IMG/VR virus record: IMGVR_UViG_3300020711_000021
Span: 1 to 36,341 of that record
Length of the DNA: 36,341 nucleotides
Source: a virus
Lineage: Duplodnaviria; Caudoviricetes
Direction: 5' to 3' (one strand)
Positions 1,106-6,999 of this stretch are shown here, one piece after another. Below the pieces are notes generated by a model. That model was not told the origin of the DNA. It made no database searches and saw nothing but the letters and a program-made list of their open reading frames with translations. Position 1 is the first letter of the stretch; the number at the start of each line of letters is the position of its first letter. Position numbers and translations under genes: made by a program.

Positions 1106-1137
1106 TTTGGCTTAACTAAATTTTCAACTTATATTTA
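1106..1137 (+). promoter_or_regulatory. Promoter TTTGG-N19-TATATTTA upstream of the ncRNA/tRNA cluster
   Basis: Repeat of the motif with 19-nt spacer. Confidence 0.75.
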
Positions 1138-1177: not shown

Positions 1178-1246
1178 AACTGTGGTAATAAGTTGAGTTA
1201 CTTCGTATGGCTTATATAAAATGAACTCACTTAAGCATTCCCGGTT
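1178..1246 (+). ncRNA. Ro60-associated Y-RNA-like scaffold, copy A (18-nt insert)
   Basis: Outer helix AACTG(T)GG/CCCGGTT, inner helix TAAGT(T)GAGTT/AACTCACTTA, TACTTCG at 1199-1205. Confidence 0.7.
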
Positions 1247-1253
1247 AAAATCA

Positions 1254-1383
1254 TTTAGGTGGTTAATTAGAAAGTTACTTCGCACGAATAGTTCAATGGT
1301 TGAACATTTTCATATCCAGAAAAAGTAACGGGTTCAATTCCCGTTTCATGCCCCAAAAAAACTTTCTTAAACATTCCCCTAAA
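1254..1383 (+). ncRNA. Y-RNA-like scaffold, copy B, enclosing a complete tRNA-like cloverleaf (1282-1355)
   Basis: Outer TTTAGG(T)GG/CCCCTAAA, inner AGAAAGTT/AACTTTCT, TACTTCG at 1276-1282; insert has acceptor, D, anticodon and T arms plus CCA. Confidence 0.75.
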
Positions 1384-1389
1384 CTTATT

Positions 1390-1500
1390 TGATGAATAGT
1401 AAGGACCAGCGTTACTTCGCGTGCAAGGTGCACATTTAAATTTGGATTTTAAAAATCGCGGTTCAATTCCGCCTGAAACGCTACCAATGTTCTTTCATCA
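1390..1500 (+). ncRNA. Y-RNA-like scaffold, copy C, with D/anticodon/T-arm insert
   Basis: Outer TGATGAA(T)AG/CTTTCATCA, inner AGCGTT/AACGCT, TACTTCG at 1413-1419; hairpins GTGC/GCAC, TTTAAA/TTTAAA, GCGG-TTCAATT-CCGC. Confidence 0.72.
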
Positions 1501-1508
1501 TTTTTTAT

Positions 1509-1581
1509 GTTCCTGAGGACAAAATGGTTGAGTCGTCACCCTTTCAAGGTGAAGGAGCGGGATCGTTACCCGTCAGGAATA
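1509..1581 (+). tRNA. tRNA-Glu(UUC)
   Basis: GTTCCTG/CAGGAAT acceptor, TCACC-CT-TTC-AA-GGTGA arm; atypical T loop ATCGTTA. Confidence 0.87.
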
Positions 1582-1587
1582 CAACAA

Positions 1588-1661
1588 GGTCTATTAGTGA
1601 ATTGGTATCATATCTCACTGTCTATGAGAAGTGCTCGGATCGTAACCGTGATAGACCGCCA
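1588..1661 (+). tRNA. tRNA-Asp(GUC)
   Basis: GGTCTAT/ATAGACC acceptor, TCTCA-CT-GTC-TA-TGAGA arm, G discriminator plus encoded CCA; T loop ATCGTAA. Confidence 0.87.
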
Positions 1662-1667
1662 ACAAAT

Positions 1668-1740
1668 GCTTCTATAGCTCAATGGTCAGAGCAGGACGCT
1701 TATATCGTCAAGGCTACAGGTTCGAGTCCTGTTAGAAGTA
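1668..1740 (+). tRNA. tRNA-Ile(UAU)
   Basis: GCTTCTA/TAGAAGT acceptor, GACG-CT-TAT-AT-CGTC arm, canonical D and T arms, discriminator A. Confidence 0.87.
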
Positions 1741-1757
1741 CTAAAAACAAAAATAAA

Positions 1758-1949
1758 ATGAAAAAAATAGTAATCTACAAAGATGTAGAAAATGTAAACG
1801 GTAAAAAAGAACGTCATATTCTTCGTTCAATCCAGCCTAGTTATGAATGGCAAGGATATGCGAAAAATAAAAACAGTATGATAGATTCTGAAGTTAGGAA
1901 TTTAGCACGTGCTTTAGAACCTAGTTTTACAGGATTCTATGTAGCATAA
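1758..1949 (+). CDS. Hypothetical protein (63 aa, MKKIVIYKDV...)
   Basis: ATG after an A-rich leader; the longer ORF from 1524 overlaps three tRNAs. Confidence 0.7.
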   Translation: MKKIVIYKDVENVNGKKERHILRSIQPSYEWQGYAKNKNSMIDSEVRNLARALEPSFTGFYVA

Positions 1950-1954
1950 AGATA

Positions 1955-2039
1955 TTTGCTGTAGTAATAAGTTGAGTTACTTCGTCTGACTTTTTAATTC
2001 ATAAATGAAAAAACAACTCACTTAAACTTTCTCAGTAAA
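1955..2039 (+). ncRNA. Y-RNA-like scaffold, copy D (30-nt insert)
   Basis: Outer TTTGCTG(T)AG/CTCAGTAAA; shares 22-nt GTAATAAGTTGAGTTACTTCGT and 11-nt AACTCACTTAA exactly with copy A. Confidence 0.7.
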
Positions 2040-2052
2040 CTTATTTTAAAAT

Positions 2053-2127
2053 TGTGGGATGCGTAGAAAATGGTTATCTCGTCAGTCTCATAAGCTGAAG
2101 TTCCCGGTTCAAGTCCGGGTCCCGCAA
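2053..2127 (+). tRNA. tRNA-Met(CAU), initiator-like body
   Basis: TGTGGGA/TCCCGCA acceptor, TCAGT-CT-CAT-AA-GCTGA arm; lacks the three consecutive G-C anticodon-stem pairs of fMet tRNA. Confidence 0.85.
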
Positions 2128-2132
2128 CATAA

Positions 2133-2233
2133 GTCCTTGATCAGGAACCGAAGATATGGTCGGCCTCTTGTGTAAACAATGCACACTGCTACCATCTAAA
2201 CCGTAGGTTAGCACAGTTCACAACTCTGGGGAT
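2133..2233 (+). ncRNA. Unidentified structured RNA (three hairpins plus closing stem)
   Basis: GC-richer island between tRNAs; hairpins AGG-AA-CCGA/TCGG-CCT, TGTGTA/TGCACA, TGCTA..ATCTA/TAGGT-TAGCA; weak closing stem GTCCTT/GGGGAT. Confidence 0.45.
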
Positions 2234-2251
2234 ATTTTAAAAGTTGTATTT

Positions 2252-2326
2252 GGACGCATAGTTTAGTTGGAAAAACACTTGCCTTGTAAGCATGAGTTCT
2301 CGGGTCGGTTCCGGGTGTGTCCTCCA
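2252..2326 (+). tRNA. tRNA-Thr(UGU)
   Basis: GGACGCA/TGTGTCC acceptor, CT-TGT-AA loop, encoded CCA; atypical T loop GTCGGTT. Confidence 0.82.
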
Positions 2327-2332
2327 AAAATT

Positions 2333-2405
2333 GGTTCTATCGTTCAATGGATTAGGACAATTGCCTTCTAAGCAATTTATGCTGGTTCGAATCCAGCTAG
2401 AACTT
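2333..2405 (+). tRNA. tRNA-Arg(UCU)
   Basis: GGTTCTA/TAGAACT acceptor, ATTGC-CT-TCT-AA-GCAAT arm, GCTGG-TTCGAAT-CCAGC T arm. Confidence 0.92.
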
Positions 2406-2411
2406 CAATAT

Positions 2412-2493
2412 GCTCCGATGGTGTAATTGGCAGCCACGCTAGACTTAGGATCTAGTGTCGTAAGACGTAAGGGTTCGAGTCCCTTTTGGAGCA
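2412..2493 (+). tRNA. tRNA-Leu(UAG)
   Basis: GCTCCGA/TTGGAGC acceptor, CTAGA-CT-TAG-GA-TCTAG arm, long variable arm. Confidence 0.93.
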
Positions 2494-2505
2494 CTTAAAA
2501 AAATA

Positions 2506-2537
2506 TTTGGCTAAGCAAAAAATTGGTCTTATATTTA
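2506..2537 (+). promoter_or_regulatory. Promoter TTTGG-N19-TATATTTA upstream of the Ro60 gene
   Basis: Motif match, 19-nt spacer. Confidence 0.75.
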
Positions 2538-2590
2538 CGACATAATAAAGCAATTAAAAATTCTCTAACAATAAAAAATTAGTAGTAAAA

Positions 2591-4132
2591 ATGGCACGTT
2601 ACAATTCAAAAGCAACAACAGTTACTCCAACAGTAACAAACCACCAAGGTGGAACAGGGTACAAATACGACCCAAAAACAGAATTAATCTCAATATTAGC
2701 AACAGGCTTGGATAACAAGTATTATGAAAAAGTAGGTGAACGTGAACAACGTTTGGCCAAAGTCATAGAAGAAGTAGCTAAAAAAGACAAACTATTTGCT
2801 GCAAAAGCTCTAGTGTATGCTCGTACCGTAATGGGACAAAGAACAGTAACACACTTTGGTGCTGTAGAATTAGCTAAAGTATTAGGAGGTGATTCTCTAG
2901 GTTCTCGTTTCTTTTCAAAGCGTGAACGTAAACAAAATAAAGGTGGTATTATCTTCCGTTTGGATGATATGCTTGAAATTGCTGCTTGTTATCAAGCACG
3001 TAATGAAGGTAAACCATTTTCAAATGCAATCAAGAAAGGTTTTAAATCCGCTCTTGAATCAGCAGATGAATATGAATTAGCTAAATATCAAGCTAAAAAT
3101 CGCGATTTATCTTTAGTTGACATCGTTAACTTAGTACACCCAAAACCATCACCAAGAATGGCTCCAGTGTTTGCTAAATTGATGAAAGGTGAACTTAAAC
3201 AGTTTAATACTGTAGAAGATAAAAATACTAAAGCTGGTCAAGAAGTTGCCGCTAAAGTAAAAGAAGGTAAAATTACTAAAGAAGAAGCAGCAGTTGAATT
3301 AGCGCAAGCTAAAGAAGACAACTATGCCGAATTGATTAAAACACGTAAAATCGGTTATTTAGCTTTATTACGTAATTTACGTAATATTCTAAAAACAGGT
3401 GCCGATAAAGAAATTATAAACGGTGCTTGTGAACTATTAACTGATCAAAAGTTAATTAAACAATCTTTAGTGTTTCCACACCAAATAGATTTAGCATTAG
3501 AAATAATGTTGGATGAATTTGGTTCAAGTAAAGTTAAACCATTTGTTAAAGCATTAAATACCGCTTACGAACTAGCGATACCAAACCTAACAGAATTATT
3601 TCCAAATGGCCGCACAGCGGTTGTATTTGATAGTTCAGGTTCAATGTCAACATCTATTAGTTTAGCTAATAAAAATAATGGTTCAGAATCAGCCATTTCA
3701 AAAGCAGCATTAATTGCCGCTACTTTAGCTAAAGGTATTGAAGCCGATGTTTATCACTTTGCTGATCGTTGTGATGAAATCAAGTTTAATCCACTTGATA
3801 CAGTTAATACGCTTAAGAAGCAATTTTTAAGTAAACAAGGTTCAGTTGGTTATGGTACTGCCTTTGACAGTATTATGAAAAAATTAGATAACAAATATGA
3901 CCGTGTGTTTGTAATATCGGATATGCAAGGTCGTGATTATCTTGAAAGAGCTAATTACAAAAACCTTCACATATATTCAATCGATATTGCCGGTTATGGT
4001 ACAACAATGTTCAAACCAGGAAACAAAGTTTATTCATTGTTTGGTTACTCTGCCGATATTTATGAATTGATAAAGAAAGTGGAAATCGATCCAAAAGCGT
4101 TAATCGCCGAAATCGAAGCAATAGAAATTTAA
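2591..4132 (+). CDS. rsr: Ro60 / TROVE-domain RNA-binding protein with C-terminal vWA domain
   Basis: 513 aa; TROVE motifs (NHQGGTGY, DEYELAKY, LVDIVNLVHPKP, ALLRNLRNI); vWA MIDAS DSSGSM...GT...ISDMQ. Confidence 0.93.
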   Translation: MARYNSKATTVTPTVTNHQGGTGYKYDPKTELISILATGLDNKYYEKVGEREQRLAKVIEEVAKKDKLFAAKALVYARTVMGQRTVTHFGAVELAKVLGGDSLGSRFFSKRERKQNKGGIIFRLDDMLEIAACYQARNEGKPFSNAIKKGFKSALESADEYELAKYQAKNRDLSLVDIVNLVHPKPSPRMAPVFAKLMKGELKQFNTVEDKNTKAGQEVAAKVKEGKITKEEAAVELAQAKEDNYAELIKTRKIGYLALLRNLRNILKTGADKEIINGACELLTDQKLIKQSLVFPHQIDLALEIMLDEFGSSKVKPFVKALNTAYELAIPNLTELFPNGRTAVVFDSSGSMSTSISLANKNNGSESAISKAALIAATLAKGIEADVYHFADRCDEIKFNPLDTVNTLKKQFLSKQGSVGYGTAFDSIMKKLDNKYDRVFVISDMQGRDYLERANYKNLHIYSIDIAGYGTTMFKPGNKVYSLFGYSADIYELIKKVEIDPKALIAEIEAIEI

Positions 4133-4153
4133 AATTTTCCAATAAAGTAAAAT

Positions 4154-4180
4154 AACTGGGTGTTTCTACACCCGGTTTTT
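4154..4180 (+). terminator. Rho-independent terminator after Ro60
   Basis: AACTGGGTGT-TTCT-ACACCCGGTT hairpin followed by T run. Confidence 0.75.
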
Positions 4181-4202
4181 ATTTAAAGTTTTTTGAAATA
4201 TT

Positions 4203-4366
4203 ATACTATAGTAAGGGTTTGTGAGGTACTTCGTATTTATAAACTAGCTTAGAAATAAGCATTTTAATTATACACATATCAGATAAAAACCTCGTACTAG
4301 GTGCCTCTTAAAAATAACCAACAACAAGAGCAAATAAGTACAAACTCACCCCAGTAATCTTAGTAT
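4203..4366 (+). ncRNA. Y-RNA-like scaffold, copy E (~110-nt insert)
   Basis: Outer ATACTA(T)AG/CTTAGTAT, inner GGG..GTGAG/CTCAC-CCC, TACTTCG at 4227-4233; internal hairpin GCTTA-GAAA-TAAGC. Confidence 0.62.
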
Positions 4367-4374
4367 ATTTTTTT

Positions 4375-4460
4375 GCCCGGATGATGGAACAGGTAGACAT
4401 GCAGGACTTAAAATCCTGTGATCCGAAAGGATCATGTGGGTTCAACTCCCACTTCGGGTA
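4375..4460 (+). tRNA. tRNA-Leu(UAA)
   Basis: GCCCGGA/TTCGGGT acceptor, CAGGA-CT-TAA-AA-TCCTG arm, long variable arm TGATCC-GAAA-GGATCA. Confidence 0.93.
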
Positions 4461-4462
4461 CT

Positions 4463-4924
4463 ATGAAAAAAGCAATTTATCTAGACGACGTCAGAACACC
4501 AATCAACGGTGATGTTGAATGGATTGTGGTTAGAAATTATAATGAATTTGTATCTAAAGTTCAAGAAATTGGATTGGAAAATATTGATGTAATTTCTTTA
4601 GATCATGATCTTGGGGATAGTGCTATGAATGAATATTTTAAAAATGTTGCTCCTAATTATACTTTGGATTACAATAATATTACCGAAAAAACGGGATATG
4701 ATTGTGCAAAATGGTTAGTTGAATATTTTTATATAAAAAATCCTAATTGGAAATATAAAAGTAGAGATGTTAAACAAGGAAGCTCATTTCGATTTCCAAA
4801 AGTATTTACCCATTCAGCTAATCCTATAGGTTCAGCTAATATTATGGGTTATATAAATAATTTTTTAATGAATGAAGTTCAAAGCCAAACCTGTGTAAGA
4901 GTTCAAATTCAACACACAATTTAA
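4463..4924 (+). CDS. Cyclic-phosphate-processing receiver-like domain protein
   Basis: Motifs IYLDDVRTP, ISLDHDLG, TGYD, HSANPIG; start moved to ATG 4463 because 4418 lies inside tRNA-Leu. Confidence 0.82.
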   Translation: MKKAIYLDDVRTPINGDVEWIVVRNYNEFVSKVQEIGLENIDVISLDHDLGDSAMNEYFKNVAPNYTLDYNNITEKTGYDCAKWLVEYFYIKNPNWKYKSRDVKQGSSFRFPKVFTHSANPIGSANIMGYINNFLMNEVQSQTCVRVQIQHTI

Positions 4925-4935
4925 AAATTTATGAA

Positions 4936-5391
4936 ATGAAACAGTTTAAAACATTAAGCGCTCATAGAAAAGTCGACTTAATACCATACATAAGAGAATA
5001 TGTTGCTAATCATCCAGAAACAGAAGTTTTAATTGGTTGTGACTCTCAAAACAGAAAAAAAGAAACTGTTTATGCTATTGTGGTAGGTTTATATACACCT
5101 GGAAAAGGCGCTCACGTTTTGTATTCTAAATTTTTTATTCAACGTGAACGAGATAACGTAGTTCGTTTATTAAACGAAGTATGGCATTCTGTTGAAACCG
5201 CAGAACAAATTAAAAATGAAATAGGAATAAAAGCAACTTGGATTGATATTGACTTAAACCCAGATCCAAAATATCGTTCAAACCAAGCACTGGCGAGTGC
5301 AGTTGGTGTTGTAACAGGTATGGGTTATAATGTAAGACATAAAGGTAATTCACCTGTTATGACTTATGCAGCAGATCATCTTGTTAAATAA
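4936..5391 (+). CDS. RNase H-like YkuK (DUF458) family protein
   Basis: IGCDSQ, RLLNEV, DIDLNPD..YRSN and C-terminal AADH motifs. Confidence 0.8.
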   Translation: MKQFKTLSAHRKVDLIPYIREYVANHPETEVLIGCDSQNRKKETVYAIVVGLYTPGKGAHVLYSKFFIQRERDNVVRLLNEVWHSVETAEQIKNEIGIKATWIDIDLNPDPKYRSNQALASAVGVVTGMGYNVRHKGNSPVMTYAADHLVK

Positions 5392-6210: not shown

Positions 6211-6999
6211 ATGATAACAGCTGAACAAATTCAAGAAAACTGGGATAAATTAATGGTAATGATTAATCAATTTATATCATCACCTCGTAAAGAAGTATTA
6301 ATATCGTTTTATGAAAAATATCAAGAACGTTTAATGTTAATGCCCGCGTCTAATAAAAAAGAATATCATAATGCCTTTCCAGGAGGTTATATTGATCATG
6401 TTCTGAGAGTTATAGAATGTTCTATTCGTTTACATAAAGTATGGGAAGACATGGGAGTTGATATTAGTACTTACACTTTTGAAGAATTAATATTCTCAGC
6501 ACTAAATCATGATCTGGGTAAATTAGGTGATGAAAATAATGATGCTTATATACCTCAGACTGACCAATGGAGAAAGGATAAATTAGGTGAAGATTATATG
6601 TTTAATTCAATTTTACCATACTCATCTATTCCAGACCGTGGTTTATTTTTACTTCAATCTCATGGAATTAAATATACCTTTAATGAAATGGTAACTATTC
6701 AGACTCATGATGGTTTATATGATGAAGCTAATAAAAAATACCTTCAAAATTTCATGCCTGAACAAAAACCACGTACTGCTTTACCTTATATAGTACATCA
6801 GGGAGATTTAATGGCTGCTCGAATTGAATTTGAAAAAGAATGGTTATCTAAACTTAATAAGAAAAATTTGGAAGATTCAAAGAAAAGTTTTACATTGGAT
6901 AATAATAAAAAAACCAAATCAACACCAAATGTTATTAAAACAAAAGCATTAAGTAACATTAAATCAGAAGGATTAAAAAATCTATTAAATAATATATGA
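6211..6999 (+). CDS. HD-domain phosphohydrolase (YhaM-like)
   Basis: PAS...YHNAFPGGYIDH, HDLGK, HDG, HQGD metal-binding motifs. Confidence 0.85.
   Translation: MITAEQIQENWDKLMVMINQFISSPRKEVLISFYEKYQERLMLMPASNKKEYHNAFPGGYIDHVLRVIECSIRLHKVWEDMGVDISTYTFEELIFSALNHDLGKLGDENNDAYIPQTDQWRKDKLGEDYMFNSILPYSSIPDRGLFLLQSHGIKYTFNEMVTIQTHDGLYDEANKKYLQNFMPEQKPRTALPYIVHQGDLMAARIEFEKEWLSKLNKKNLEDSKKSFTLDNNKKTKSTPNVIKTKALSNIKSEGLKNLLNNI

Follow-up and report, generated by a model that had tools for sequence, protein, structure and literature searches.

A tRNA-like module on a Y-RNA-like handle travelling with Ro60 in a large tailed phage

Does a complete, CCA-ending tRNA that lies inside a larger folded RNA serve as a tRNA, as the precursor of one, or as part of a different RNA? 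The question arises from a stretch of phage DNA of 36,341 nucleotides, here called the window. At 23% completeness, this 36 kb piece comes from a large tailed phage and includes genes for baseplate, primase and exonuclease. Its first 2.5 kb hold tRNA genes and a tmRNA, arrayed on the plus strand, and the element in question, RNA no. 2, is listed with its neighbours in Table 1. A promoter-like repeat, present in 6 copies where 0.48 are expected, precedes this cluster and, at 2506-2536, the Ro60 gene. The copy at the cluster resembles the Bacteroidota promoter consensus, and a sigma-70 scan of the sequence stays at chance level (7 matches against 6.3). The repeat and the bacterial carriers of the RNA family described below point to a Bacteroidota host.

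Several other genes of the array deserve mention. The tmRNA at 685-1081 (Rfam 83 bits) is kept in the relatives L003, L007 and L009; its tag is cut short by ARAGORN and, judging by L003/L007, begins further upstream. The tRNA genes at 1509-1581 and 2060-2127 (Glu- and Met-type) are detected by Rfam and missed by ARAGORN. The free tRNA-Asp(GUC) at 1588-1661 has the loop CUGUCUA with the non-canonical base U37, which could be an anticodon-nuclease escape change.

The cloverleaf that an earlier note on this DNA had claimed at 1282-1355 is real, with every arm where it had been placed. The acceptor strands are 1282-1288 and 1345-1351 with a single C-A mismatch at pair 4-69, the D stem is 1291-1294/1302-1305, the anticodon arm 1307-1323 and the T arm 1328-1344, and C1352 is followed by CCA at 1353-1355. 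ARAGORN, proposed in the note as a check, calls a tRNA-Asp(atc) at exactly these ends, and the Rfam tRNA model scores 49 bits on 1282-1352 (E 1.1e-07, gathering 29). By both programs the D and T loops carry the consensus of a decoding tRNA gene. The anticodon loop, A32 U33 A34 U35 C36 C37 A38, departs from the canonical Y32, U33, R37 at A32 and C37. The label tRNA-Asp was rejected.

The claim that scaffold helices enclose the cloverleaf also holds. The fold of 1254-1383 surrounds it with an inner helix (1269-1276/1360-1367) and an outer helix (1255-1259/1378-1382), the latter extended by GG 1261-62/CC 1376-77 across the bulged U1260. This fold has a z-score of -2.78, and equal stability is reached in 1 of 200 shuffles. 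The reverse strand also folds (z -3.39), so the strand is fixed by the tRNA motifs and the all-plus array, not by energy. Pair probabilities reach 0.83-1.0 in the scaffold, D and T stems and 0.61-0.89 in the anticodon stem; the acceptor stem is the weakest part, its pairs having only 0.26-0.73. Homologous loci with the tRNA and no flanking helices, named in the note as grounds against nesting, were sought with a pattern of anticodon-arm and T-arm letters alone (no scaffold, anticodon or CCA term), and the scaffold was present in 7 of 7 matching viral contigs.

Table 1. Features of the window discussed in the text.
Feature	Position	Strand	Content	Evidence or remark
Y-RNA-like RNA no. 2	1254-1383	+	Handle and complete tRNA-like module in normal D-anticodon-T order	Fold, pair probabilities, covariation
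5′ handle strand of no. 2	1254-1281	+	Outer helix, bulged U1260, GG 1261-62, inner helix 1269-1276, unpaired ACUUC leader	
tRNA-like module of no. 2	1282-1355	+	7-nt acceptor strands with one mismatch, non-canonical loop AUAUCCA, encoded C-CCA	ARAGORN, Rfam
3′ handle strand of no. 2	1356-1383	+	Inner helix 1360-1367, CC 1376-77, outer helix to 1383	
Y-like RNA no. 1	1178-1246	+	Handle and short hairpin insert	
Y-like RNA no. 3	1390-1500	+	Handle and D-like, anticodon (UGG) and T arms, no acceptor stem	Ends read from sequence
Y-like RNA no. 4	1955-2039	+	Handle and hairpin insert	91% like no. 1 over 34 nt
Y-like RNA no. 5	4202-4367	+	Handle (GGUACUUCG) and branched insert, just downstream of Ro60	Weak fold, z -1.45
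Ro60/Rsr (TROVE + vWA) gene	2591-4132	+	513 aa; predicted protein partner of the Y-like RNAs	Pfam TROVE E 1.8e-11; phrog_850
Promoter-like repeat	1106-1136	+		Upstream of the Y1-Y2-Y3 cluster

The scaffold is a Y-RNA-like handle, marked by a bulged U, a covarying outer helix and GUUACUUCG, that travels with Ro60. Its motif G(G/U)UACUUCG occurs five times on the forward strand of the record, always within 1197-4233, with no reverse and no control matches, and each copy sits in a stem joining its own 5′ and 3′ ends. A tRNA-Pro called by ARAGORN at 1409-1482 is a miscall of Y-like RNA no. 3. No Rfam family matches the scaffold, and blastn of 1170-1510 against 50,697 GenBank phages gave no match. 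The Ro60 gene starts 1.2 kb downstream of RNA no. 2 on the same strand. Among solved structures its product is closest to phiRo60 of a Thermus phage (9KOP/9L5Y; E 6e-19, residues 16-502). It keeps K148, K149, H183 and K185, which under an inferred numbering offset align with the region of K141, K142 and R178, the RNA-binding residues of phiRo60 in the available text of PMC12135203. Downstream lie genes for a cyclic-phosphate receiver (cREC, 4418-4924), an RNase H-like protein (4936-5391) and a probable HD phosphohydrolase (6211-6999), here labelled an RNA end-processing neighbourhood.

The handle is conserved as a structure. Motif sites near Ro60 form 154 clusters, and both helices close in 98 of them. 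A bulged U is seen in 81 of these 98, in a fit that was optimised for pairing and not for the bulged base. After the bulge the first pair is G-C in 54 clusters and A-U in 37, and the second is G-C in 46, C-G in 25 and U-A in 18. Among 14 relatives, two-sided changes occur in 13 of 18 RNAalifold pairs, and the covariation score is 0.611, against 0.209 for shuffled and at most 0.223 for slid alignments. On the MAFFT alignment of these 14, in which 6- and 7-bp acceptors are out of register, RNAalifold leaves the inner, acceptor and anticodon stems uncalled. A long stem in which the two ends of the RNA pair and the helix carries a bulge, as in Y RNAs in the broad sense, is thus predicted here and covaries.

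Relatives occur in many phages, crAss-like ones included, and in Bacteroidota genomes, mostly adjoining Ro60. Linkage was scored with the handle motif and a T loop, without a protein term, and Ro60 was then sought in the fetched 4 kb flank. Among the matches listed, the viral loci that reach 6 kb have it in 62 of 78 cases (67 of 118 at all lengths), a count dominated by one crAss-like clade. Genome loci gave 26 of 58 at this size (30 of 120 at all lengths), again among the matches listed. Of ten contigs lacking Ro60 in the flank, seven carry it elsewhere and the other three are 11-44% complete. In the 8 bacterial loci scanned, Ro60 has RtcB as a neighbour twice and Band-7 once. Acceptor-less members of the family are found in cultured Bacteroidota, among them Dyadobacter bucti (L209) and Mucilaginibacter lappiensis (L169). 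In other large phages (L014, L015, L017) tRNAs with CUA anticodons near Ro60 suggest amber recoding; the exact handle motif is absent from L014-L016.

The handle can carry four classes of insert, each found near Ro60 in both phages and bacteria. Assigned by crude regular expressions, the unique sites (viral or metagenome/genome) number 77/40 for the normal tRNA order, 15/17 for the permuted order, 15/10 for a T arm only and 34/15 for a hairpin. Permuted and normal topologies coexist in one family and sometimes in one genome. Permuted modules of the YrlA type sit on the same handle in L004 (2265), L011 (4536) and L019 (12477 and 12701). GOLLD RNAs (239 and 288 bits; L004 5491-5917, L011 3913-4328) lie beside the Ro60 gene or among Y-like RNAs, and L004 holds a group I intron at 4387-4586. 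In the crAss-like genome crAssE-Sib (L435, OR575929) two Y-like RNAs upstream of Ro60, at 2159 and 2305, are labelled tRNA-Tyr and tRNA-Lys in GenBank, and the Tyr-type loop takes at least nine forms in close relatives of these members. Some phage "tRNA genes" that adjoin Ro60 and have odd anticodons, these two among them, are probably Y-like RNAs. Such relabelling affects phage tRNA counts and escape-mutation analyses.

The earlier note considered normal decoding unlikely, and this is borne out by the orthologues, among which neither the anticodon loop nor the acceptor sequence nor the discriminator is constant. Seven distinct close relatives of the module have four loops (AUAUCCA, AUUUCCA, CUUCCAA, CUUAUAA) on one invariant anticodon stem, together with three acceptor types and three discriminators (C, U or A). 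In the wider family the anticodon loops follow the rules of real tRNAs. In 45 clusters with 7-nt loops, from which L163, an ordinary tRNA-Ala, was dropped, U33 is present in 37 and R37 in 41. G37 accompanies G36 in 12 of 12 loops and occurs in 4 of the 33 others; in real tRNAs the corresponding fractions are 58/74 and 12/289. Since the clusters are kin and not phylogenetically independent, the Fisher p of 6e-08 overstates this coupling. Nested loops matching free loops number 17 of 46 against 5.8 after shuffling, a comparison given no weight here because its free set may include unfiltered nested modules. In one clade the anticodons GAU, UCU and UUU occur on a nearly identical body; the modules at L023/L024 4397 and L025 1483, for example, are near-identical and carry GAU and UCU, UUU being the third variant. 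Judged by sequence, then, the nested anticodon loops look chosen, although their stems are AT-rich.

The loop of the window is an exception to this rule, and one that is conserved rather than decayed, as the neighbouring form AUUUCCA recurs in L003/L007, L438 and L052. Some features hint at an origin from tRNA-Gly(UCC): the loop CUUCCAA in L005/L287, U73 in L003/L007/L287 and the position of L438 between two Gly genes. Alignment to free tRNAs is weak, and the best match of the window module is tRNA-Ile. The reading of the module as captured cargo survives as distant ancestry only, the stems being AT-rich replacements (anticodon stems have 26% GC in nested modules and 55% in free tRNAs).

The acceptor end follows a rule of its own. 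Remnants of the acceptor range from 0 to 9 nt across the family, with at most 3 nt left in 31 of 59 clusters. In the 32 clusters with a remnant of at least 5 nt, found without a CCA term, CCA is present in 5, NCA in 12 and C74 in 7; scans that required CCA were excluded from these counts. The free tRNA genes of these phages (21 loci, 239 unique genes, 195 parsed) encode CCA in 8 of 195 and C74 in at least 190 of 195, which suggests that C74 is retained under a rule of host 3′ processing. Set against these genes, the family as a whole does not follow the pattern of processed tRNAs. The subfamily of the window is different: a pattern without a CCA term finds CCA at 74-76 together with the handle in 7 of 7 contigs from three lineages with three acceptor sequences, and L438 keeps CCA on a fully different, perfectly paired acceptor. 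The CCA therefore looks selected here. Selection of this kind fits recognition by RNase P. It also fits display in an uncut RNA, as the released tRNAs of these phages do without an encoded CCA.

The best reading of RNA no. 2, held tentatively at a little under an even chance, is an intact, Ro60-tethered tRNA mimic that acts as bait for host enzymes attacking tRNA. The promoter at 1106-1136 would drive this RNA together with Y1 and Y3. Ro60, encoded 1.2 kb downstream, would bind the bulged helix of the handle, as the analogy with Y RNAs suggests. The whole tRNA shape would then be displayed on the handle, the RNA acting uncut, and tRNA-attacking nucleases would be titrated or retained at Ro60, leaving the real tRNAs of phage and host to survive. 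Ro60 is very probably the partner; uncut action seems fairly probable; and if both hold, a role as bait for tRNA-attacking enzymes is likely. The case is built from the cloverleaf with its helices, the five handles, the Ro60 linkage, the covariation, the swappable inserts, the tRNA-like switching loops and the kept CCA.

What is kept in the subfamily of the window is the T arm, any paired acceptor and CCA. This set matches what tail-cutting nucleases such as Cas12a3 read; other members display anticodon loops. In the accessible part of PMC12851939, Cas12a3 from a Bacteroidetes bacterium reads the T arm, acceptor stem and CCA and tolerates changes in the stem. In the same text the enzyme stacks on the A that ends the tail; an internal CCA may thus have to be cut before it can serve as a substrate. 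The tRNAs are a common target of defence, and phage tRNAs have been proposed as a counter, according to the text available from PMC10264068. Against the bait count the loop of the window, whose A32 and C37 break the very real-tRNA rule that supports bait at the family level, and the literal Ro-site motif GNCGAA, absent here with GUGGUUA in its place. The phage Ro60/Y RNA pair that was tested also acts on PNPase and not on tRNA nucleases, as far as the accessible text of PMC12135203 goes. A bolder and unlikely version makes Ro60 the display platform of Bacteroidota phages for swappable tRNA decoys, with loops directed against anticodon nucleases and acceptor-plus-CCA ends against tail-cutting defences (Cas12a3). 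If true, phage Ro60/Y RNA particles would have a part in countering defence, and their target code could be read.

The same CCA can be read as the end of a released product. RNase P would cut at G1282 and 3′ trimming would free a 74-nt, CCA-ending, non-decoding decoy, with the Ro60 handle storing the precursor or timing its release. The geometry allows this: the 7-nt acceptor strands begin with G, both the 5-nt leader and C-CCA are unpaired, and CCA is in exact register in three lineages. RNase P also cuts the YrlA of M. smegmatis, which acquires CCA (PMC4201824). However, about half of the family (31/59 clusters) retains at most 3 nt of acceptor, and the longer remnants have CCA in 5/32 and C74 in 7/32 where free tRNA genes have C74 in at least 190/195. 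Release alone would not need an encoded CCA, given the free tRNAs that do without it. The trailer is paired into the handle, the acceptor pairs are weak in the predicted fold, L005 and L287 have C1-A72, and L286 is one base short. Release is a serious though less likely rival.

Another reading is that of a tether resembling RYPER, in which the sole task of the tRNA fold is to stabilise the Y RNA, or to connect Ro60 with PNPase or an RNA ligase in RNA decay or repair, the loop and the CCA being incidental. It draws on phiRo60, the best solved match to the Ro60 of the window, which with Yrl1/2 binds and slows host PNPase in the available text of PMC12135203. The RtcB (2/8) and Band-7 (1/8) genes beside bacterial Ro60 and the cyclic-phosphate receiver gene after Ro60 in the window agree with it. 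As it leaves the G36-G37 coupling, the anticodon switching and the exact-register CCA unexplained, it is considered rather unlikely. Finally, RNA no. 2 lies in a tRNA array, has received a tRNA-Asp call, and has two relatives in OR575929 annotated as tRNA-Tyr and tRNA-Lys, as would be expected of an ordinary or decaying tRNA gene with flanks paired by chance. This is very improbable with five handles in the window, a handle in 7/7 relatives, covarying flanks that contradict chance pairing, and unstable anticodon and acceptor identities.

Several known systems resemble RNA no. 2 in part. YrlA (RF02553; PMC4201824 and the accessible text of 10.1101/312249) shares a same-strand Ro60 within 4 kb, a long stem of 5′ and 3′ ends, a tRNA-like effector module, several Y RNAs per locus and a YUAY motif at equal spacing from the Ro-site motif, here UUAC in GUUACUUCG. 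The position of UUAC aligns with CUAC of the RF02553 model in a sibling. Permuted siblings reach 33-35 bits against Rfam YrlA (threshold 69) with their handle motifs on the Ro-site and CUAC motifs, and the spacing agrees with the published YrlA alignment. On these alignments the handle is a divergent relative of the Ro60-binding stem of YrlA. Membership of YrlA itself was rejected on order, Ro-site motif and Rfam score. YrlA has a permuted T arm, closed acceptor and D arm and no anticodon loop, whereas RNA no. 2 has the normal D-anticodon-T order, is joined via the acceptor end and includes an intact anticodon arm, an acceptor stem and an internal CCA. The YrlA Ro-site GNCGAAN0-1G near the 5′ end is replaced by GUGGUUA here, R-U-R-B-Y in the family and GCCGUAG in Bacteroidota genomes. 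RF02553 gives no match on 1254-1383 at E up to 10, with 69 bits required.

Yrn1 of D. radiodurans (PMC4201824) also has a stem-loop between D and T arms in the anticodon position, but lacks a full D arm, an acceptor stem and CCA; its loop is of 6 nt and its Ro site is metazoan-like. In the Thermus phage phiLo, phiRo60 is likewise accompanied by upstream Y-like RNAs, Yrl1/Yrl2 (PMC12135203; 9KOP, 9L5Y). These are hairpins with a CGAA motif, and the available text of that paper mentions no cloverleaf, acceptor, CCA or anticodon. The b7a-tRNA (Burroughs and Aravind 2016, as cited in 10.1101/312249) is a predicted RNA strongly resembling a real tRNA, near Band-7/RtcB and occasionally Rsr; Band-7 and RtcB also flank some Bacteroidota loci of the present family. 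Compared by description only, it differs in that the Discussion of 10.1101/312249 mentions no enclosing Y-RNA handle, and it may overlap the present family. Literature searches on the architecture and the loci found no description; the original b7a-tRNA account, the 2020 Annual Review and the Wolin reviews lay outside their coverage and may describe part of it.

By analogy, RNA no. 2 is read here as working like a bacterial Y RNA. In such RNAs the target of the tRNA-like module is an open question (PMC4201824; accessible text of 10.1101/312249). The present family adds to them one handle with permuted, normal-order and hairpin inserts, real-tRNA loop rules on stems that are not those of tRNAs, and anticodons that switch. 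Because the inserts are swappable, the loops obey these rules and the anticodons switch, exchanging the loop or the CCA can test the target directly.
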